From positions 27,326 through 91,325 of the forward strand of contig JAKASG010000001.1 in the NCBI GenBank assembly GCA_021828285.1: DNA of 64,000 bases, written 5' to 3'. Within the stretch, counting starts at the first letter, position 1. Every line of letters begins with the position of its first letter. Source of the DNA: Acidobacteriota bacterium. GTDB taxonomy: Bacteria; Acidobacteriota; Terriglobia; UBA7540. A program made the position numbers and the translations under genes. Under the pieces are notes generated by a model, which had not been told where the DNA came from, ran no database searches, and worked only from the letters and a program-made list of their open reading frames with translations. Positions 15,684 through 28,621 of this stretch are shown here, one piece after another.

Positions 15684-15713
15684 TTGGAATAATACATCGC
15701 AGTATGATACAAT
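15684..15713 (+). promoter_or_regulatory. sigma-70-like promoter with an extended -10 (TTGGAA-N18-TGATACAAT) in an AT-rich island
   Basis: TTGGAA at 15684-15689 and TACAAT at 15708-15713, preceded by TGA. It is followed by a GCGCC/GGCGC hairpin and the marR-like ATG at 15765. Confidence 0.4.
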
Positions 15714-15764
15714 GACTTTCGTCGGGACAGCGCCTGGAAGGCGCCGCACCCCAGGGGCGGGCAA

Positions 15765-16265
15765 ATGGGCAATAGCAAAAATACGGTTGCGGGCTGGAAG
15801 GATTCCCTTCGGGGGGTCGAGGCCGCCGTAGCAGGGTTCAAACCGACGGCGTCCGCCGCGCTCACAAGGCGGCAGGCCTGGTTTCGCTATCAGCTTCGCC
15901 AATTTCTCCATTTCAGCGAGAAAGCCGCGCGGGCCGCAGGATTGACGCGGCAGCAGCACCAGCTCCTGCTTGGCGTTGCCGGCTTTACGGACCGCGGCTG
16001 GGCGACCATTTCAGAACTCGCGGAATTCCTTCAGGAACGTCACAACGCGGTGGTCGGCCTTGTACAGCGGGCGGCGCGCCGCGGATGGATCAGGAAGCGC
16101 GAGATCGCACGCGACCGGCGACTGGTGCGCGTCGAATTGACGCCGAAAGGCAGGACGATCCTGGCGAGGCTCACCCGGCTCCATCGCGACGAACTTGTAA
16201 GGTTCGAGGCGCGCCTCGCCGATTTCACCGCCGGGCGTGACAGCAAAATCAAAGAAGCCAATTGA
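15765..16265 (+). CDS. MarR-family transcriptional regulator
   Basis: 166 aa with a winged-HTH region LTRQQHQLLLGVAG...ISELAEFLQERHNAVVGLVQRAARRGWIRKREIARDRRLVRVELTPKG. Confidence 0.8.
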   Translation: MGNSKNTVAGWKDSLRGVEAAVAGFKPTASAALTRRQAWFRYQLRQFLHFSEKAARAAGLTRQQHQLLLGVAGFTDRGWATISELAEFLQERHNAVVGLVQRAARRGWIRKREIARDRRLVRVELTPKGRTILARLTRLHRDELVRFEARLADFTAGRDSKIKEAN

Positions 16266-20284: not shown

Positions 20285-21772
20285 TCAAGGCGTTGCAGAA
20301 GTTGAGTTGCGCGCCTCCCAGAGCGGATCTGCAACCGATCCAACCAAATAGGCCGAGCTCGACAGAGGCGCCCGCCCGGGCGAGTTTGCTGCCGTGCTGC
20401 TTTGCTGCGACGAAGAGCCCGTATACTGAGACAATCGAATCGTCCCGTAAGTTGTGCGCAGGCGAATGGTCGGGCCGTTCGCTCCAATGCCGCCTGAAAT
20501 CGAAGGCCGGCCGCCTCCTTTCGACAAATGCAGGCCTGGCGCTGAAAAGCTGCTATAGACGTCTCCGCCACGAGCTACCGCGTCAATCTGGAAGGCTGCG
20601 GATGCCGGCAAATCCAATTCGATATCTCCTTTTTTAAGATCAACCTCAATGGGATGTTTGAGCGGCGCAGCGGGTCGAAGCTGGACGTCGCCATTCGCGT
20701 CCGTGATGTGCGCGTCGTAATCGAAGTTCGCGAGGCGAATGTCTTTCTGTCGGGTCGTGAGGTTGAACGGGCCGCCCACGCCATCGGCATCGAGCGAACC
20801 TATATCCATGTTGAGGTGGCCGGAAATCTTCTCGACCGTCAGATCGGTGCGCGATGAAGTGAAGCGAAGTGTCTGCGACACGTTTTGGAATTGCATCGCG
20901 CCTGAAAAATCGCCTTCAATGGTGACGGAACCGGTCACGCCGGAGACTTGCACGTCTTCGCCGCGCCCCTCGAGGTGAATGTCGCCGGTCATGCTGCTCA
21001 CCACCGTGGACCCGCCGGACTTATCGATCTGCAATCGGCCACTGGCGTTCATCACATGCACATCCCCGTGCTTGTCGGTGAGCCGAGCGGAGCCGCTCAA
21101 GCCGTCCAGGAGGATATCGCCCTGGCCGGCGGTGAGGTCGGCGGAGGTTTCGGCCGGAGCGTGAAGCACAATATCCAGACGGATGTTTGAGCCGCCGCGG
21201 GGCAATTGGCTGAGGTTCGATTGGAGCGTATAAGCGCCGCCTTGGTGAGAAAAGGAAAGCTGAATTTGCCTTGCGAGCTCGTCGGCGGACTGGCGGTCGT
21301 TCGCGGTTACGGTCTCTTTGATGGAGGCGGAAAGCTCCGGCGCGCTTGAAGCGTGCACCTCGATATCACCCCAGGGATCGACGACAACCAGATGGTCCGG
21401 CGCGGTGACCGGTTGCGAAAGAGTCTGGGAATAGGTGTAAGAATTCATGAAAAGCTCGCCCATGCCGCGTCCCATCGGCCCCCAGCGTCCCCATGGATGG
21501 AGCACGATCGCCGAGACCAGAGATCCGAAGATGAGGATGAGCACGAGGAGAACGACTTCACTCGCCGTAAAAACAGGCGGAGGCGTCCCGGGTCGCGGCG
21601 TGAGGTGCTCGATCAGCTTGGAAATACCCCAGATGATAATCAACGCAGGCCAGTACTTGGCGATGATCTCCCACGGGTGGACGGCTGGATTGAATTGTTG
21701 GTAGAGAAACAGCACGCCCACCGAAATCAGAATCAACGGCCAGAAAATGGATCGGCGACGATAGCTATCCAT
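20285..21772 (-). CDS. membrane-anchored DUF4097 (toast-rack beta-repeat) protein with a LiaF-like N-terminal TM region
   Basis: The N-terminus SIFWPLILISVGVLFLYQQF...YWPALIIIWGISKL gives 2-3 TM helices. It is followed by repeated beta-strand motifs (GDILLDGLSGSARL, GDVHVMNASGRLQI, GDIHLEGRGEDVQVSGVTGSVTIEG, GDVQLRP, GDIELDLP). The start is ATG 21772 or the upstream ATG at 21841. Confidence 0.7.
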   Translation of the reverse strand: MDSYRRRSIFWPLILISVGVLFLYQQFNPAVHPWEIIAKYWPALIIIWGISKLIEHLTPRPGTPPPVFTASEVVLLVLILIFGSLVSAIVLHPWGRWGPMGRGMGELFMNSYTYSQTLSQPVTAPDHLVVVDPWGDIEVHASSAPELSASIKETVTANDRQSADELARQIQLSFSHQGGAYTLQSNLSQLPRGGSNIRLDIVLHAPAETSADLTAGQGDILLDGLSGSARLTDKHGDVHVMNASGRLQIDKSGGSTVVSSMTGDIHLEGRGEDVQVSGVTGSVTIEGDFSGAMQFQNVSQTLRFTSSRTDLTVEKISGHLNMDIGSLDADGVGGPFNLTTRQKDIRLANFDYDAHITDANGDVQLRPAAPLKHPIEVDLKKGDIELDLPASAAFQIDAVARGGDVYSSFSAPGLHLSKGGGRPSISGGIGANGPTIRLRTTYGTIRLSQYTGSSSQQSSTAANSPGRAPLSSSAYLVGSVADPLWEARNSTSATP

Positions 21773-21849
21773 GGTTCGCCTCGAATTGCCAATTGGCCTG
21801 AAAAGCCCCATGCCGTTTCGACCGGCATGCATCAACGGCAATTATTCGC

Positions 21850-22041
21850 TTACTTGCCTTGCTTCACTCTCTGAAGCTCCTCTTCAAGCTCGCGCATCCT
21901 TCGTGCATGTTCCCTTTCCTCGGGCTCGAGTTTACACACCGTGTCGGCCTCACTGTCGTGGAGGCGCGCCATCACAACGATCCCCACAATCAGGACCACA
22001 GCGAGGAAAACCCCGAGGGGAATAATGAACGGTGAATTCAT
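21850..22041 (-). CDS. small single-pass membrane protein with a charged coiled-coil tail (paralog A, PspB-like architecture)
   Basis: MNSPFIIPLGVFLAVVLIVGIVVMARLHDSE...EEREHARRMRELEEELQRVKQGK. It shares NPFIIPLG.F with paralog C. The longer track ORF (to 22146) would overlap paralog B. Confidence 0.55.
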   Translation of the reverse strand: MNSPFIIPLGVFLAVVLIVGIVVMARLHDSEADTVCKLEPEEREHARRMRELEEELQRVKQGK

Positions 22042-22090
22042 GGCCTCGCTCTTTTCCGCGGCACGGGGCGTCTCGCCTGCGCGGCAACCG

Positions 22091-22303
22091 TCAGGCGACC
22101 TTCTGGCCCGCCTGCTGCGCCTTCGTTTTCTCGATTTCCAGGTCAAGCTCTTTCATGTGCCGCTCGTGCTCCATCTCACGGATGCGCAATTCCTGGTGGA
22201 TTTTGAGCTCGTGCTCACGAGTTTTCCCCCAGACGCCGACGGCAACGACGGCGATAATCATGATCCACACGCCCATCGAAGACAAAAAATGAAAAATTGA
22301 CAT
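22091..22303 (-). CDS. small single-pass membrane protein with a charged coiled-coil tail (paralog B)
   Basis: MSIFHFLSSMGVWIMIIAVVAVGVWGKTREHELKIHQELRIREMEHERHMKELDLEIEKTKAQQ.... GGAGG lies 7 nt upstream of ATG 22303. The KTRE.EL..H..LR.REMEHER..K segment is shared with paralog C. Confidence 0.6.
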   Translation of the reverse strand: MSIFHFLSSMGVWIMIIAVVAVGVWGKTREHELKIHQELRIREMEHERHMKELDLEIEKTKAQQAGQKVA

Positions 22304-22317
22304 TGTCGAACCTCCTT

Positions 22318-22441
22318 GATTTATTGGCGATTGATGAGAGCCCTCAGCCATCAGGTCTCGGCTTTCAGCGCTAACACCCTCGGCCCTTTGCTGAGAGCTG
22401 ACCGCTGAAAGCTCTCAATCGCAAATCGCCAATCAGAAATC
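22318..22441 (-). promoter_or_regulatory. nested inverted repeats forming a large predicted RNA structure between paralogs C and B
   Basis: The outer arms GATTTATTGGCGATTGA (22318-22334) and TCAATCGCAAATCGCCAATCAGAAATC (22415-22441) pair as 5+9 bp helices. The inner perfect 10-bp arms are GCTTTCAGCG (22361-22370) and CGCTGAAAGC (22403-22412). Confidence 0.4.
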
Positions 22442-22450
22442 CCAAATCCT
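22416..22450. repeat. five tandem heptamers (CAATCGC AAATCGC CAATCAG AAATCCC AAATCCT)
   Basis: Read directly. The array begins at the stop codon of paralog C. Confidence 0.7.
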
Positions 22451-22671
22451 CAGTGGCTGCCTCCCGCTTTCGTTTTCTCAAGCTCGATCTTGGCCTTTTC
22501 GATCTCCATCTGCTTCAGTTGGCGCTCGTGCTCCATTTCACGCATTCGCAGATCGCGGTGGGCTTCCAGCTCTTTTTCCCGCGTCTTGCGATAGGACCAG
22601 ATTGCGACGATGACAATCACCATCGCAAACGCCCCCAACGGAATAATGAAAGGATTTTGTAACCAATCCAT
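22450..22671 (-). CDS. small single-pass membrane protein with a charged coiled-coil tail (paralog C)
   Basis: MDWLQNPFIIPLGAFAMVIVIVAIWSYRKTREKELEAHRDLRMREMEHERQLKQMEIEKAKIELEKTK, with GGAGG upstream of the ATG. Confidence 0.6.
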   Translation of the reverse strand: MDWLQNPFIIPLGAFAMVIVIVAIWSYRKTREKELEAHRDLRMREMEHERQLKQMEIEKAKIELEKTKAGGSH

Positions 22672-22732
22672 GCGCGTTCACCTCCTCCAGATATTCGCTC
22701 CCTGAATGGTTAATCCTCATTTTCGGCCTTTC

Positions 22733-22942
22733 CTATTGTACTGCGTGCTGCCGCTCTCCATGCCGCACGAGCAGCCAAATTCCAACGCCAATGAGGATGA
22801 ACGGGCTCAGCGGAATCAGCAGACCCAGGCCGATGCCCAGAAGCGCTCCGCCGAGGCCGAACAGAATTCCCAGCGCGCCGGTCATCAATCCAAAAACCAG
22901 CGCGCACATCCCTATCGCCAAACCGAAGATTAGTCTGAACAT
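22733..22942 (-). CDS. Gly-rich (glycine-zipper-like) small membrane protein
   Basis: MFRLIFGLAIGMCALVFGLMTGALGILFGLGGALLGIGLGLLIPLSPFILIGVGIWLLV. GGAGGG lies 5 nt upstream of ATG 22942. Confidence 0.5.
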   Translation of the reverse strand: MFRLIFGLAIGMCALVFGLMTGALGILFGLGGALLGIGLGLLIPLSPFILIGVGIWLLVRHGERQHAVQ

Positions 22943-22999
22943 CTTAGCCCTCCGAAGAATTCGGCTTCCGGGAATTGCCAACCCTCCCCGCGATTCCGC

Positions 23000-23686
23000 C
23001 TACAGGCTCATTCCGCCGCCCGTTTTGGAATCCTGAGCGCCCGCGCCGGGAGGATTCGCCGGCGGCTGCTGCGGTGACGCGACAATATGGCTGGTGCGCT
23101 TCTGCAGGATCAGAATCCCCAAGACGATCAAGAGCACCGGCCAGAACTTGGAAGCTTCTCTGAATACCGGGATGCCGAGATTATCGAGCATAAAGAGCGT
23201 TCCCAGAACGATGAGAAGGCCCGCGGCAACCGGACCGGTCATTTTGAAATCGCCCAGGCCGAACCATTCCTGCGGCTGCTGTCCGAGCTGCTTCGCGCGC
23301 GCCGTCTGATAGGAATCGAAGACCATGTAAAAATAGAAGGCCGCCGAAGCGAAACCAAAAATGGTGCTCAAAGGGTCGGCGACGCGATTGCTGATTGCGA
23401 TCAGCGAACCGAAGAGCAGAACCTGAATGAACCCTTTCATGATCTGCCCGTTGTAAATCGCTCCCACGCCGGGGATGAATCCCAGGGCGAGCGCGACGCC
23501 GGGGCTGGGCGCTCCGGGAACGCCAAAAGCCGGCGGAATACCAGTCGAGGAGCGTAAGCGAGCTGCCAGGCAAGCCTCACAGTAAACGGCTCCGCTGACC
23601 GTGCGCTTGCAGTCCGCACAGAGCGCGCGGCCGCACTGTCCGCAATAGGCAACCGAATCAACGAGTGGATGGTTTGAGCATTTCAT
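23000..23686 (-). CDS. B-box/zinc-ribbon N-terminal domain fused to a polytopic membrane region (the C-terminal TM pair resembles the LiaF-type N-terminal TM region)
   Basis: MKCSNHPLVDSVAYCGQCGRALCADCKRTVSGAVYCEACL is followed by GFIPGVGAIYNGQIMKG... and FWPVLLIVLGILILQKR. The gene is tightly packed (2-nt gap) behind the anti-sigma gene. Confidence 0.65.
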   Translation of the reverse strand: MKCSNHPLVDSVAYCGQCGRALCADCKRTVSGAVYCEACLAARLRSSTGIPPAFGVPGAPSPGVALALGFIPGVGAIYNGQIMKGFIQVLLFGSLIAISNRVADPLSTIFGFASAAFYFYMVFDSYQTARAKQLGQQPQEWFGLGDFKMTGPVAAGLLIVLGTLFMLDNLGIPVFREASKFWPVLLIVLGILILQKRTSHIVASPQQPPANPPGAGAQDSKTGGGMSL

Positions 23687-23688
23687 GG

Positions 23689-24348
23689 TTATGGCTTCCT
23701 CGCGGACGCCGCCAGGCGGTCTATTTTGGAAGTCCCAATCCAGGCCATTTGGGAATCTCGCGCAACACCCTTGTCGCTGGCGCCGCCCGCGGGCCGAGCC
23801 GGCTCGGAAGCGGGCTTCCGCGCATTCGAGGGCCGCAATTGGCTCAGCCGCGACTCGATCTCGTAAACCACGCGAAGATCGTAGTAGAACCTTTCAGCGC
23901 GCGCGGCAAGCAGGTGACCCGCCTGGTTAGCGCGGTAAAACCAGGTTCCTGGATTCAAATCGCTCAAGCGGAGTTTGCGCACGTTTAATCCTGAGGCATT
24001 GATGAGGATGGAGATCGAAAAGACCGCCATCGCCACCGTATAGGCAACGCGCAGTTGGAAGACCGGCCGCAGAAACGCCTGCAGGCGCTCGCTGAACGCC
24101 GGGCGGCTCTCGCCGATAGTGGCGCGAAGAATGTTCGGGACCATCCACGGCGGCGGTTCAAGCGCTTCGGCTGTGTGGCACAAATCGAGCGCCTCGCGCA
24201 GGCTTCCCATGAGGCCCCTGCACTCTTCGCAAGCGTCCAGGTGCTTTTCCATCTGCGCCCGGGCCGCCGCATCAAGCTGGCCTTCCAGGTAATCGCTCGC
24301 GAGATGTTCGATCTCGAGGTGCGTCATTGCGCTTCCTTCAACCCTCAC
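23689..24348 (-). CDS. anti-sigma factor (zf-HC2 type) with one TM segment
   Basis: HLEIEHLASDYLEGQLDAAARAQMEKHLDACEECRGLM is an H-x3-C-x2-C motif. The GTG start at 24348 overlaps the sigma stop (GTGA). An alternative ATG lies at 24327. Confidence 0.8.
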   Translation of the reverse strand: MRVEGSAMTHLEIEHLASDYLEGQLDAAARAQMEKHLDACEECRGLMGSLREALDLCHTAEALEPPPWMVPNILRATIGESRPAFSERLQAFLRPVFQLRVAYTVAMAVFSISILINASGLNVRKLRLSDLNPGTWFYRANQAGHLLAARAERFYYDLRVVYEIESRLSQLRPSNARKPASEPARPAGGASDKGVARDSQMAWIGTSKIDRLAASARKP

Positions 24349-24905
24349 TCATCCATACGCTTTATGAGGCGCGCAAGTTCCAGGCGCCCGCGGTTGATTC
24401 GGGACTTCACGGTGCCCTGCGGGACACTTAAAACCTGCGCAATTTCAGCGTAATCCAAGTCCTGCAAATCCCTGAGGATAACGGCCTCGCGCAACTCCGG
24501 CGACAGATGTTCGAGCGCCGCCTGGAGAGCCTCATGGCGTTCGCGGTGTTCCAGGCGCTCGATGGGATGCTCGCCCCTGGCAGGCTTTTCTTCGATCCGC
24601 ACGCTCGTCTCTTCGAGTGAAGATGTGACGCGGTCTTTCTTCGTGCGGCGGTAATGGTCCACCAGGTGGTTGCGCGCCACGCGGTTCAGCCAGGTCGAAA
24701 AACTCCCTTGCGCAGGGTCGAACGACTTCAGCGTCTGGAAGATTTTGATGAACACTTCCTGCGTCAGATCGTCCGCGTCCTCGCGCCGGCCGGTGAAACG
24801 GTAGCACAGGTTGTAGATTTTCCGGCTGTGCAGATGAAGCAGATTCTCCCAGGCCAGGTTGTCGCCGGTGAGGCATTGCTTCACCAGTTCGTGGTCTTGC
24901 TCCAC
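24345..24905 (-). CDS. ECF (group IV) RNA polymerase sigma factor
   Basis: 186 aa with sigma-70 region 2 (YNLCYRFTGRREDADDLTQEVFIKIF) and region 4 (DLQDLDYAEIAQVLSVPQGTVKSRINRGR). Confidence 0.9.
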   Translation of the reverse strand: MEQDHELVKQCLTGDNLAWENLLHLHSRKIYNLCYRFTGRREDADDLTQEVFIKIFQTLKSFDPAQGSFSTWLNRVARNHLVDHYRRTKKDRVTSSLEETSVRIEEKPARGEHPIERLEHRERHEALQAALEHLSPELREAVILRDLQDLDYAEIAQVLSVPQGTVKSRINRGRLELARLIKRMDE

Positions 24906-25051
24906 GCACGGTCTCCTCGCTCAAGCTCGCGAGCCCGGAGAATGGACGCGAGTCGCACGACGCGCGGCTCTCTCGACTAAAGCTCGTCGGGCATTTTACC
25001 AGAGCCGAAGGGGATTTTGCCGTGATTGCAAGCCCGGGGCCGTCCGCGCTT

Positions 25052-28000
25052 TCATTTCGCCGGCGCGAGCGGAGGAAGCAGCATATAGCCGGGGCGGGTT
25101 TCATCATGTTGCAGATATTCGCGGTACGCCGGCGTCGAAGGCCGATGGTCTCCGGAAGGCGGCGGGTATCCGGTCATGCTGAGGAAAGGCATGGGACCGA
25201 CGGTGCGGGAGTCGGCGGTGTTCGGCTCGCCATCCTTCGCGTAGCCCACGAGATCGAGGAAAAAGTCGCGCTTCCAGCCGGGCTTGAGCGGAGGCAGCCG
25301 GCGTGCGTCGAACTGGAGAGTGATATCGTCTCCGGGCGCGAGCACCACGAGCCGGTTGTCGGCGTGGCCGAGCAGATTCGCCACATCTCCGTACCGCGTG
25401 TAATTACCCTTCAGAGGATTCCACGGAGGCTCTTTCATCAGCTTCGCATATTCGAAGAAATCCGGCTTGCGATTATCGGGATCGGTCACCGGAGTTGAGA
25501 ATCCGCGATAGTGCAAGCGGGCGGCCGCCAGAGGCACGGTGATGGGCGCGGGAACGGACGCTTCGCGCGTGGTGAAGAAGATGCGGTCCCAATACACCGC
25601 GAGATTTGTCACAATCCGGATATGATGATCGGAAGTCAGGAATTTTCCGGTCAAATCAACGCGCATCGTGCGGTTCGTTCCGCTCGGCAGGCCCATATCC
25701 GGGATGACGGTTTCCCACTTGCCCGCGGTATTGCGCACCTGGAGATAGGGCATAATCATTTTCAGCCTGGGGTCCGCCATCAGCGCGCGCGAAGCATTCG
25801 AATCCGTCCAGAAGACCCAGCCCGTCAGATAAAGGGCAACGGGATCTGAATTACGGAAGCGGCCCAGATTGAGCGTCAACGCGTGGAGCCTCGCAAGGCC
25901 GAGGATGCGGTTCAAGCGGAAATCCGTCGGAAAACGGCCGTCCACGGCGAGCAGGTCGGGCAGGACATTATGCCCGCGATCGTCAACGGCGGAGACGGGG
26001 AAACGCTTCCGAACCACAGCGTAAATTTTGGGATGCACGGGGTTCGAGGAATAAATCTCATTCGAATAGAGCGATTCGCCCGCGGGATGATCCACTGCGA
26101 GCAGGCGCGCGCGATCCACAAAATCCACTTCGCGCATTTCTGAGGTGAGCTGGAAAGTGTAAAACCCGTTTTGCGGTTTGGGATGGCTGCCGAGACGGAC
26201 GTATTCTTCGGGATTGGCGCGCGCCCAGGTCCCGTCCGGCTGAAGTTCACCGAGCGGTGAAGCGCCGAGCACGTCGGTGAAGTAGACATACTGTTTCCCG
26301 TTCCAAACGTAGAGGAACGGGCAAGAGCTTGCCAGCCGCTCGGACTCTCGAACGTTCAAGACCGTGTCCGTCTTGACGTTCACGGAATTTTCCACGATGC
26401 CGTTCGGCCACGTCACGCGGACGACGTCGAGCTGCGAAAGGCCGTCGGTGTAGATGCGCAGCGGCGACCTGCGGGCGACGACTTTATCGTAGAAATTTCC
26501 CGCCTTGACTTCGACGACGTCGCCCACGCCCTCGTAATTGCTCTTTTCTCCGGTGAGTTTTACTTCGAGCCAGTGCGGCGCCGGGCCGGCGCGCTTCCAG
26601 GCGATCAACTGCCCTTTTTCGGTCACGCCGGCCAGATCCACGCCCGCTTGGCGTGAAAACCAGGTCGGATGGAGCGCGGCGATCCGGACGCCCAAAGCGA
26701 GGGGCAGCGTGATCGGCAGCTCTTTGAAATGGCCCGCGAGATCCGCAATAAATCGCCAGCGACCGGAAGAGTCCTGGAGCAACAAGCCCGGAAAGCCGTC
26801 GCCTTCGAGGTCGGCAATCGTTCCGCGAAACGCCAGCGGCCCGCGCGGCGGCTTGACAGCCGGCAGACCGGCGTAAGGGGTGAAATGAGCGTGGCCGTCA
26901 TTGCGAAGGACGGTGTAACCGGAAGCCGTCCAGAGCGCGAGATCAAAATTCCCGTTGTGGTCGAAATCCGCAACCCCTCCGCCGGCGGCCGTGGCGCTTG
27001 AAAACACCGGTCCTGCAGCCGCGGACGCATTCCTGAAGCGGTCGCCGCCTTCGTTGAGATAGAGCAGCGGCGGGCCGTCGTCCCTGAAAAACACCAGGTC
27101 CAGATAACCGTTGTTATCGAAGTCGGCGAAAGCTGCGCCGCGCATTCGGCCGATAGCGCCGCCGAGCCCTGACGCACTGGTGATATCGGTAAACGACCCG
27201 TCACCGTCGTTGCGATAGAAGTGCGGGGCGACGCCCGGGAAATCGGCGGGAAAATTGAAGCTCGCGTTTTTCGGCGCGTGAGAGAAGTTGGTGTAGCCGG
27301 TGACCAGGAGGTCAAGAAAGCCGTCGTTGTCCGCGTCGAAAAGGATGGCGCGAGTATCAAGCTCGCCGAAGTCGGCTCTGGGCAGCGCAAGGCCCGATTT
27401 GGCCGTCACATCCGTGAACGTTCCGTTGCCGTTATTCCTGTAAAGATGCACGCCGCCGAGGCCGACGACGAAGAGGCTCGGGTGGCCGCTGTTATTGTAA
27501 TCAGCGAACGTTGCGGAAACCGAGTCCGGAGGGCCGCTCACACCCGCCTGGGCCGTTACATCGGTGAAAGTTCCATCCCCATTGTTGCGGAGCAGATGAT
27601 TGCTTCCCGCCGGGTTGACGATGTAGAGATCGGGCAGGCCATTCCCCAAATAATCTCCCACTGCGATGCAAGGGCCGAAGAGCGGCAAGAGCTCGCGGCG
27701 GGCGTAATCGAGGGAGTAATCCTTCGCCCGAATCGTCGCCGAACGGCCGGTTGCAAGGGCGCTGCGGGATTCTGCAAGCGATACGCCAGGAGGGACAGGG
27801 ACAAAAGACAATTCTTCAGACGCCGCGTAAGCTTCCGGCATTGCGGGCGCCGTGGCGGGGACGATGATGGCGCCGTATTTACCGCTCTCAAGCGCCGTCG
27901 CTTGCACTGACAGCCCCGGCACCTTGTTGTGCACCTTCTGATGCATCGCCAGATATTTCACGGCCTCCGCCCGGTGGCCGAGGCGGATGTCGATCGTAAA

Positions 28001-28621
28001 GCAGTGGAACAGGGCTGCAACATAAAAGTTCTGAGCGCGCGTGAAGCCCAGATGAACCACGTGGAGGTCGGCGTTGAGAGCGGCTTCCAGCTTCGTGTTT
28101 TTTTGCGCCGGCGTCACGGCCGACTCAGCCTCGTCGAAATAAACGTCGCCCAGGTTGAACCATGAAGAAGGATCGCTCGGATTTTTTTCCGCCACTTCGC
28201 GCAGCTCGCGTTCCGCCTCCGGATAATGGAGTTCGCGCTTGTAGAGAATGCCGAGATTGAAATGGGCGGCGAGCAAGTCCGGCGCCATCTCTCGAGCGGT
28301 TGTCAACTCGCCGAGCGCGGCATTGTATTCACCCGCTTGCATCAGAGACATGCCGAGATCGAGATGATCGGTCGCAAGCGCCTTGCCGGCGCCGATGATC
28401 TTCAGGAATTCCGCCGCCGCTTTGTGGTAGTGCCCTTGTTCGTAATAGGCTTTGCCGATGTTTCGCAAAGTCTGAATCTGGGCTGAGGAAAGGACCGGAT
28501 CGGAAGGGCGGGTGCTTTGCAACGCCGGACGCTGGGCCTGAGTGCGTCCGGCGTTGAAGGAAAGAAAAAGCAGACCGAGAATCGCCGCTGTCATTCGCAA
28601 ATATTTTCCGCTTGCTGACAT
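25052..28621 (-). CDS. secreted TPR + FG-GAP/VCBS repeat + ASPIC/UnbV protein (CRTAC1-family)
   Basis: 1189 aa with a signal peptide, N-terminal TPR repeats, repeated FADYNNSGHPSLFV / DADNDGFLDLLV / FADFDNNGYLDLVF / ADFDHNGNFDLAL calcium-binding FG-GAP motifs, and then a VRVTWPNG UnbV-type module. Confidence 0.8.
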   Translation of the reverse strand: MSASGKYLRMTAAILGLLFLSFNAGRTQAQRPALQSTRPSDPVLSSAQIQTLRNIGKAYYEQGHYHKAAAEFLKIIGAGKALATDHLDLGMSLMQAGEYNAALGELTTAREMAPDLLAAHFNLGILYKRELHYPEAERELREVAEKNPSDPSSWFNLGDVYFDEAESAVTPAQKNTKLEAALNADLHVVHLGFTRAQNFYVAALFHCFTIDIRLGHRAEAVKYLAMHQKVHNKVPGLSVQATALESGKYGAIIVPATAPAMPEAYAASEELSFVPVPPGVSLAESRSALATGRSATIRAKDYSLDYARRELLPLFGPCIAVGDYLGNGLPDLYIVNPAGSNHLLRNNGDGTFTDVTAQAGVSGPPDSVSATFADYNNSGHPSLFVVGLGGVHLYRNNGNGTFTDVTAKSGLALPRADFGELDTRAILFDADNDGFLDLLVTGYTNFSHAPKNASFNFPADFPGVAPHFYRNDGDGSFTDITSASGLGGAIGRMRGAAFADFDNNGYLDLVFFRDDGPPLLYLNEGGDRFRNASAAAGPVFSSATAAGGGVADFDHNGNFDLALWTASGYTVLRNDGHAHFTPYAGLPAVKPPRGPLAFRGTIADLEGDGFPGLLLQDSSGRWRFIADLAGHFKELPITLPLALGVRIAALHPTWFSRQAGVDLAGVTEKGQLIAWKRAGPAPHWLEVKLTGEKSNYEGVGDVVEVKAGNFYDKVVARRSPLRIYTDGLSQLDVVRVTWPNGIVENSVNVKTDTVLNVRESERLASSCPFLYVWNGKQYVYFTDVLGASPLGELQPDGTWARANPEEYVRLGSHPKPQNGFYTFQLTSEMREVDFVDRARLLAVDHPAGESLYSNEIYSSNPVHPKIYAVVRKRFPVSAVDDRGHNVLPDLLAVDGRFPTDFRLNRILGLARLHALTLNLGRFRNSDPVALYLTGWVFWTDSNASRALMADPRLKMIMPYLQVRNTAGKWETVIPDMGLPSGTNRTMRVDLTGKFLTSDHHIRIVTNLAVYWDRIFFTTREASVPAPITVPLAAARLHYRGFSTPVTDPDNRKPDFFEYAKLMKEPPWNPLKGNYTRYGDVANLLGHADNRLVVLAPGDDITLQFDARRLPPLKPGWKRDFFLDLVGYAKDGEPNTADSRTVGPMPFLSMTGYPPPSGDHRPSTPAYREYLQHDETRPGYMLLPPLAPAK

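Follow-up and report, generated by a model that had tools for sequence, protein, structure and literature searches.

A conserved extracytoplasmic function sigma/anti-sigma operon of Terriglobia with Lia-type membrane proteins and an ordered array of single-pass mini-proteins

Operons in which a sigma factor and a zinc-finger anti-sigma factor stand beside LiaI-LiaF-TM and Toastrack proteins have been predicted in Acidobacteria by Ravi et al. 2024 (mSystems; PMC11237479, Table S4, Text S2.4, section 27). AciX8_0610 of Granulicella mallensis (AEU34960.1) is an example, a variant with B-box plus LiaI-LiaF-TM occurs in Acidobacterium capsulatum (ACO33311.1; Text S2.4), and for such operons a lia-like function, exerted by way of the sigma factor, was proposed. 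Their core consists of the sigma factor, a single-pass zf-HC2 anti-sigma factor, a (B-box) LiaI-LiaF-TM protein and a protein that joins LiaI-LiaF-TM, an extra transmembrane (TM) helix and Toastrack. Here we analyzed a 64,000-nucleotide (nt) stretch from an Acidobacteriota bacterium of the class Terriglobia (GenBank assembly GCA_021828285.1, contig JAKASG010000001.1, forward-strand positions 27,326 to 91,325; the whole stretch is called the window, and positions count from its first letter), in which eight co-directional genes occupy the minus strand from 24905 to 20285. We consider it probable that these genes, forming one operon behind an extended -10 promoter, make up a membrane-signalling unit that would be a lineage-specific elaboration of the operons described by Ravi et al.

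The window operon shares with these operons the phylum, the same four core genes and domain architectures in co-directional and identical order, and the suggested Lia-like signalling through a sigma factor; both are known from computation alone. The initial annotation had called the combination a system not yet described, which no longer holds for the core, because Table S4 and Text S2.4 of PMC11237479 already catalogue it. Unlike that description, the clade of the window has 1 to 5 tandem mini-proteins (minis), an optional Gly-rich peptide and a stand-alone LiaI-like gene, whereas the DUF2089 (ZnR-HTH-SHOCT) gene, part of the four-gene core of PMC11237479 in other lineages, is absent from the window operon. 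A literature search for this gene combination returned nothing, and the main text of the extracytoplasmic function (ECF) sigma factor classification paper (PMC7826278) mentions neither DUF4097 nor LiaF. New here are the ordered tandem family of minis, the accessory Gly-zipper peptide and a third, stand-alone LiaI-like gene, to which a conserved promoter of apparent housekeeping type and a predicted periplasmic location of Toastrack may be added.

Two further kinds of system resemble the locus in part. The LiaIH-LiaGFSR system of Bacillus subtilis and VraTSR of Staphylococcus aureus also use LiaI-LiaF-TM domains (LiaI, LiaF, VraT) in membrane-bound modulators and Toastrack domains in LiaF, LiaG and VraT, as modulators of a transcriptional switch, and relatives of the window locus carry a small hairpin protein like LiaI. 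In contrast to the two-component output of LiaSR and VraSR, the window operon has an ECF sigma/anti-sigma pair; it lacks a PspA homolog such as LiaH, and with no histidine kinase, response regulator or PspA in the operon it is not a classical LiaFSR system. LiaF differs in having four TM helices and a domain in the cytoplasm; the Toastrack protein of the window has three TM helices and its domain is predicted to be periplasmic. In B. subtilis, the ECF operons sigM-yhdL-yhdK and sigY-yxlCDE encode small membrane proteins that modulate the anti-sigma factor; they likewise unite sigma, anti-sigma and small membrane-protein gene(s) in one operon, without LiaI-LiaF-TM or Toastrack partners.

The evidence that the eight genes belong together comes from their conservation. 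A pattern scan over one genome per GTDB species yielded 93 stretches encoding a relative of the minis, and the open reading frames (ORFs) of the best 80 loci were searched with the eight window proteins. All of these best 80 of 93 loci come from species-level metagenome-assembled genomes of Terriglobia/Acidobacteriota, and none is from a named cultured genus. A single gene order was found across the 80 loci, namely sigma, anti-sigma, the Zn-ribbon/LiaI-LiaF-TM protein (ZnR-LiaTM), the optional Gly-rich peptide, the minis and Toastrack; it was complete in 59 of the 80, the rest being cut by contig ends or fragmented. Synteny within Acidobacteriota is thereby borne out, and recurrence of the block in the same order among the best 80 loci lies far beyond chance. 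An aroA gene convergent with the operon lies behind it in 53 loci and the upstream neighbours vary, so the block is self-contained.

In nearly all relatives the block includes one gene more, a stand-alone gene for a LiaI-like hairpin of ~70 amino acids (aa) between mini C and Toastrack. A spacing filter detected it in 68 of 73 loci, and in three of the five apparent misses the gene overlaps the Toastrack ORF. It is truly absent only from one relative (L063) and from the window, which has a 77-nt gap at this place (21773-21849). The protein follows the pattern '...GPVILITLGVMFLLDQFVPGWGI.KTWPALLIVIGVLKLID..RPPRPPEGPRV', where RPPRPPEGPRV is the conserved C-terminal tail.

The first two genes encode a sigma factor and its putative partner. 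The sigma factor matched Sigma70_r2 (2e-22, residues 24-89), Sigma70_r4_2 (2.4e-18, residues 125-177) and Sigma70_ECF (1.9e-7) in Pfam, and TIGR02937 in NCBIfam with 128.7 bits against a cutoff of 42.9, while none of the named NCBIfam equivalogs (SigE, SigW, others) reached its cutoff. Having regions 2 and 4, no region 3, and a length of 186 aa within the usual ~170-200 aa, it belongs to the ECF (group 4) factors. The anti-sigma protein matched zf-HC2 (PF13490; 1.1e-8, 35.5 bits, cutoff 22.2) and carries an H-x3-C-x2-C motif (HLDACEEC) that is kept in relatives, followed by a hydrophobic TM helix, a conserved segment of ~50 aa beyond it and a variable low-complexity tail. The N-terminal motif domain, the TM helix behind it and the position next to the sigma gene make it a member of the ZAS / zf-HC2 group.

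The two Lia-type proteins share a domain that can be recognized at the sequence level. In the Zn-ribbon protein, LiaI-LiaF-like_TM1 (PF18917) scored 2.4e-9 (37.6 bits) and LiaF-TM (PF22570) 2.1e-8 (35.4 bits); in the last protein of the operon the values were 7.6e-10 (39.2 bits) and 9e-9 (36.5 bits), all against a cutoff of 27. Since both match the LiaI-LiaF-TM profiles, the likeness noticed at first sight between the final two TM helices of the Zn-ribbon protein (FWPVLLIVLGILILQ) and the N terminus of the last protein (FWPLILISVGVLFL) reflects a true shared domain. The last protein also matched DUF4097 (PF13349; 3.6e-14, 53.2 bits, cutoff 22.9), and its AlphaFold2 (AF2) model (predicted local distance difference test score, pLDDT, 87; predicted template modeling score, pTM, 0.75) displays three TM helices and a beta-repeat structure over residues 110-450 with pLDDT ~97. 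Its sequence found no match in PDB; the fold search alone found relatives, the best Foldseek hits being 4qrk (E 4e-7) and 4opw (E 3.7e-4), which are the Toastrack exemplars named by Ravi et al. 2024 (PMC11237479). The predicted structure thus confirms the Toastrack fold, and the Pfam match and the fold search agree with the first assignment of a DUF4097 toast-rack protein to the end of the operon. From the N terminus, the protein consists of the LiaI-LiaF TM hairpin, the third TM helix, Toastrack and a disordered Ser/Pro-rich tail.

The Zn-ribbon protein begins with a B-box-like double-zinc domain, continues with a TM2-like segment and carries its LiaI-LiaF-like TM hairpin at the C terminus. 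The observations on its B-box label point both ways. The eight zinc ligands C3, H6, C15, C18, C23, C26, C36 and C39 are invariant among 50 homologs, the zinc domain has pLDDT ~96 in the AF2 model, and some close homologs carry a precomputed PF00643 match or the NCBI name 'B-box zinc finger protein'. On the other side, the PF00643 match of the window protein itself (0.0014, 19.2 bits) lies under the gathering score of 24.1, and Foldseek returned weak RING/LIM/B-box matches alone (best E 0.38).

Between these proteins lie the minis, each with a short end predicted outside, a TM helix with the signature PLGAF and a charged, predicted cytoplasmic helix with REMEHER. Mini B and mini C are 47% and 38% identical to mini A, and together with the shared family and the positional subfamilies these identities uphold the initial view of the three as paralogs. 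A word-seeded search collected 242 relatives of 70-111 aa, none of which has a Pfam domain. The family is narrow, comprising 155 clusters at 50% identity when 1.84 billion cluster representatives were searched exhaustively with a profile, and the named ones among these clusters are all Terriglobia. Against Pfam, the minis gave sub-threshold, composition-driven matches alone (DUF5384, ATP-synt_E), and against PDB sequences there was no match at E<=10. Comparison of the operon with the PADLOC defence models gave two marginal matches only (E ~7e-4, 16-18 bits), both to unrelated models.

The array of minis is ordered. Among 69 complete loci, one copy was found in 3, two in 4, three in 35, four in 21 and five in 6, and the ORF search of all returned loci gave up to 6 mini matches per locus. 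Three positional subfamilies can be distinguished: A is the first or sole copy, B stands in the middle in variable number, and C is the last; members of the 'last' cluster and their relatives close the array in 63 of the 69 complete loci, and the A-B-C array of the window is the commonest arrangement. Non-conservation of these small ORFs would have spoken against the module, and the opposite was observed. Pairwise ratios of nonsynonymous to synonymous change (dN/dS) were 0.16 for A, 0.21 for B and 0.25 for C, as under purifying selection, synonymous sites are near saturation (median proportion of synonymous differences, pS, ~0.7) and variability peaks at the third codon position. Because of this low dN/dS and third-position variability, the minis are taken as translated genes, and the comparison shows them to be genuine genes under purifying selection.

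The most conserved residues of the minis are P11, L12, G13 and F15 in the TM helix and the pattern K..RE.EL.AH..LR.REMEHER in the cytoplasmic helix. Five residues, E34, E58 and, within REMEHER (mini A residues 45-50), E45, H48 and R50, do not vary in any of the three subfamilies. Such a His/Glu cluster on the charged helix might bind a metal or a specific protein partner.

The Gly-rich peptide, in which a GxxxGxxxG glycine zipper can be read directly, had no match in Pfam or NCBIfam, and its homologs occur in about 17-20 of 77 related loci. The Gly-zipper mini-protein seen initially is therefore present as such, and by its occurrence in a minority of related loci it is accessory to the system rather than a constant part.

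An ECF sigma factor commonly, though not universally, has an autoregulatory promoter upstream of its own operon, and such a promoter had been expected upstream of 24905. It was not found. Canonical ECF bipartite motifs occurred upstream of the sigma gene in <=3 of 68 loci, equal to shuffled sequences, and none was recognized by inspection. Instead, the sigma-70-type extended -10 element TGnTAnAAT lies upstream of the sigma start in 65 of the 68 loci against 0.4 in shuffles, typically at ~85 nt (31-153 nt; standard deviation of position 12). In most loci the flanks read TTC-TGnTACAAT-GCC, without a conserved -35, and a conserved G+C-rich 'GCCGCC' discriminator-like stretch comes after the -10. 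No extended -10 was present in the spacers that separate the ZnR gene from mini A, and no terminator-like or promoter-like site inside the operon rose above chance. With the extended -10 conserved and ECF motifs not enriched, the sequence evidence puts the operon on a housekeeping-type promoter without autoregulation; an ECF autoregulatory promoter was rejected, as neither pattern enrichment nor inspection revealed one. Within the 64 kb of the window, TGnTAnAATG occurs only twice, at 24992-25001 (-) and at 15705-15714 (+), where it lies ~50 nt before an unrelated 166-aa ORF starting at 15765.

All eight genes were borne out in place and on the minus strand by an ORF check of the window and by public gene calls on the identical contig, with the exception of mini C in one assembly (Table 1). 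Two starts claimed earlier had to be moved downstream, those of the anti-sigma and Toastrack genes, and the other genes begin as first given. For the anti-sigma gene, a GTGA overlap with the sigma gene had been suggested, which is probably not used; ATG 24327 has the Shine-Dalgarno sequence GAAGGAAG, conservation among relatives starts there and database calls agree, so this is the most likely start. Toastrack homologs open with 'MS.Y.YRRGSIFW', which corresponds to ATG 21772 in the window. With both revisions the intergenic gaps become 17, 2, 57, 61, 146, 49 and 77 nt. As to mini C, one public assembly called a 58-aa antisense ORF in its stead (window 21859-22035, plus strand; L081 3637-3813, minus strand), so that mini genes of this size are easily mis-called. 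The upstream neighbour on the same strand (25052-28621, minus) encodes a TPR + FG-GAP/VCBS-repeat protein of ~1180 aa; since its adjacency to the operon is not kept in relatives, we place it outside the system.

Table 1. Features of the operon in the window and, in the last two rows, the LiaI-like gene in two related loci
Feature	Coordinates	Strand	Basis and remarks
Extended -10 promoter element TGGTAAAATG	24992..25001	-	87 nt before sigma GTG; followed by G+C-rich stretch; no -35 hexamer
ECF (group 4) sigma-70 factor, 186 aa, GTG start	24345..24905	-	Pfam, TIGR02937; exact protein in public calls
ZAS-type anti-sigma factor, single-pass, 212 aa	23689..24327	-	zf-HC2 1.1e-8; start from Shine-Dalgarno sequence, conservation and database calls
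Zn-ribbon/B-box-like + LiaI-LiaF-TM membrane protein, 228 aa	23000..23686	-	PF18917, PF22570
Gly-rich (GxxxG zipper) membrane peptide, 69 aa, two hydrophobic helices	22733..22942	-	Exact protein in public calls
Mini-protein A, 73 aa	22450..22671	-	Subfamily 'first'; 242 homologs
Intercistronic hairpin spacer, 146 nt	22304..22449	-	Folding energy, z score
Mini-protein B, 70 aa	22091..22303	-	Middle subfamily; exact protein in public calls
Mini-protein C, 63 aa	21850..22041	-	Most divergent, 'last' subfamily
LiaF-like TM + Toastrack (DUF4097) protein, 495 aa	20285..21772	-	Pfam, AF2, Foldseek
LiaI-like gene, example in L001	6519-6743
LiaI-like gene, example in L003	7819-8067

The longest of the gaps, between mini A and mini B, had been pointed out as a structured spacer, and it does contain a long imperfect hairpin (free energy -66.7 kcal/mol, z -4.8). 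The hairpin is specific to this genome and outside the conserved system: the same junction in relatives has a median of 52 nt and no unusual stability, and the spacer has no match in Rfam and no second copy in the window. Without a structured counterpart in relatives, it was rejected as a part of the system. Since unrelated G+C-rich palindromes are found in different spacers elsewhere among the loci, the hairpin is best read as a sporadic lineage-specific insertion; a palindromic insertion and an mRNA processing or stability element are both possibilities for its origin and role. Many related genomes have G+C-rich palindromes that resemble repetitive extragenic palindromes (REP) in the spacer between ZnR-LiaTM and mini A, as in L010-L012, L015, L017, L021, L029, L030, L039 and others, for example GTAGGGCCGCC...GGCGGCCCTAC and GTAGCACAGCCACTCCTGGCTGTGC, and the palindrome family differs by sub-clade. 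A conserved RNA structure in the ~80-nt leader was likewise rejected, the RNAalifold consensus being weak (-1.15 kcal/mol) and the leaders folding like shuffles (mean z -0.18).

The predicted topology distributes the system over both faces of the membrane. In 62 homologs of the Toastrack protein, the net charge is +1.95 at the N terminus before TM1 and -2.9 in the 20-25 residues after TM3. On the three TM helices and this charge bias, the Toastrack domain is placed outside the cytoplasm, so that by TM count and the positive-inside rule it is probably periplasmic. The tail behind the last helix of the Zn-ribbon protein has a charge of +2.8; we infer that this tail and the loop 124-150 are inside, which would leave both ends of the LiaI hairpin cytoplasmic, an arrangement shared with the stand-alone LiaI-like protein. 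In the Zn-ribbon protein, the broken helix 62-78, as modeled, is probably re-entrant, keeping the Cys-rich zinc domain in the cytoplasm. In the minis, the residues before the TM helix are acidic or neutral and those behind it include an R/K cluster, hence they should be oriented N-out, C-in. In sum, the cytoplasmic face would present the sigma factor, the sigma-binding (ZAS) domain of the anti-sigma factor, the B-box and the charged mini helices, while Toastrack and the conserved post-TM segment of the anti-sigma factor would be exposed on the periplasmic face.

According to this arrangement, we propose a working model for the operon. In unstressed cells, the anti-sigma factor would hold the sigma factor at the membrane within a complex whose intramembrane part is formed by the LiaI-LiaF TM hairpins and the TM helices of the minis. 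A perturbation of the envelope or membrane would be sensed by the TM hairpins and/or by the periplasmic Toastrack, and the changed complex would cause the anti-sigma factor to release the sigma factor or to be degraded, so that the freed sigma factor could act on a regulon elsewhere in the genome. The minis, arranged as A-B(n)-C, may form a hetero-oligomer and serve as co-anti-sigma or adaptor subunits, by analogy with LiaF for LiaS or PspB/C for PspA. A further step is more daring and we offer it as an unlikely, speculative version: through their PLGAF and REMEHER helices the minis would build an ordered hetero-oligomer with the B-box/LiaI-LiaF-TM proteins, taking the adaptor/effector role of PspA/PspB/PspC or LiaH/LiaI in a PspA-less sensor with ECF sigma output, whose periplasmic Toastrack contacts the anti-sigma factor.

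Three other explanations were weighed against the signalling unit. The minis had initially been called PspB-like, and if they were divergent PspB homologs the module would be a Psp system with a triplicated PspB gene. Size (63-73 against 74 aa) and predicted architecture (a single TM helix with the N terminus out and a charged helix in the cytoplasm) are alike, 'IPL..F' is common to the TM helices, and some psp operons have PspB duplications (PMC11237479). E. coli PspB is likewise a small single-pass protein, encoded in an envelope-stress operon, and an interaction via TM helices, as for PspB/PspC, is plausible for the minis too. However, Pfam PspB (PF06667) had no match among the three window minis (E<=1) or among 42 relatives (E<=10), and hhalign against E. 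coli PspB (K-12 pspB reference from NC_000913.3) gave probabilities of 3.4% and 5.6%, the better run covering 19 TM columns only. The REMEHER helix has no counterpart in PspB, and unlike E. coli PspB/PspC the minis constitute a family of their own with three ordered subfamilies, in an operon without PspA, PspC or PspF. Pfam found no PspA or PspC domain in the eight proteins, as the initial annotation had also noted, and the flanks are aroA and the TPR/FG-GAP gene. We therefore rejected PspB homology for lack of a Pfam match and for the low hhalign values over the TM helix only; the likeness is one of architecture with no demonstrable homology, and a triplicated-PspB system is very improbable. 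Still less credence can be given to the idea that the sigma pair and the downstream small ORFs are adjacent through inherited synteny only, without a joint function. The loci all come from one bacterial class, and shared ancestry could hold an order for some time; yet synonymous sites are saturated and the upstream neighbours are not kept while the block order is invariant, the gaps are short, no internal promoter or significant terminator was found, and the same domain combination occurs in other acidobacterial genera (PMC11237479).

The main rival supposes that the anti-sigma factor alone is the sensor and that the six downstream genes encode membrane-protective effectors which stand in for PspA or LiaI/LiaH; the minis would coat or stiffen the inner leaflet with their charged helices, and the genes would simply be co-expressed with sigma. 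In B. subtilis LiaI serves as effector anchor, and yvlABCD, a Toastrack/PspC operon, is a target of an ECF sigma factor (PMC11237479); the window operon has no PspA, so that protection would have to come from elsewhere, and a copy number varying from 1 to 5 in complete loci is a typical mark of structural or effector genes tuned by dosage. Against these points stand the housekeeping-type promoter and the lack of an ECF-type promoter upstream of or inside the operon, owing to which induction of the operon by its own sigma factor is not supported and the accessory proteins would more probably be stoichiometric components of a sensor than stress-induced effectors. That the order A-B-C is fixed and the TM helices are highly conserved also points to a specific complex and not to a bulk coating. 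The promoter evidence is only mildly unfavorable to the effector explanation, which we judge unlikely while taking it seriously. The signalling unit, which remains our preferred explanation, has several points to answer as well. The window lacks the near-universal LiaI-like gene, so either this part is dispensable or the copy is atypical; the published view holds Toastrack domains to be mostly intracellular (PMC11237479); the search for ECF promoters consisted of canonical motif patterns and inspection by eye; the proposed function is read from domain families of which only some Lia/Vra members have been studied; and all carriers are uncultured. The initial idea of an expanded Psp/Lia-like envelope-stress module thus survives as a conserved unit coupling an ECF sigma/ZAS pair to Lia-type proteins (two with LiaI-LiaF-TM, one with Toastrack), and its PspB component falls away.

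Envelope-stress and antibiotic-response systems, LiaFSR and VraTSR among them, widely employ Toastrack and LiaI-LiaF-TM proteins, whose mechanism is poorly understood. The practical value of the present operon is limited, because its carriers are all uncultured Acidobacteria of soil and peat and its core had been catalogued before. For the biology of this protein family it offers a natural variant, in which the output is an ECF sigma factor, the Toastrack domain is probably periplasmic, and ordered, tiny single-pass proteins have been inserted. Should the hetero-oligomer be real, it would represent a distinct architecture in which both faces of the membrane take part in stress sensing. Were the minis shown to be sensor subunits, they would be a new family among the few small membrane proteins that tune signalling complexes, and they would show how the state of the membrane can be coupled to transcription without PspA.

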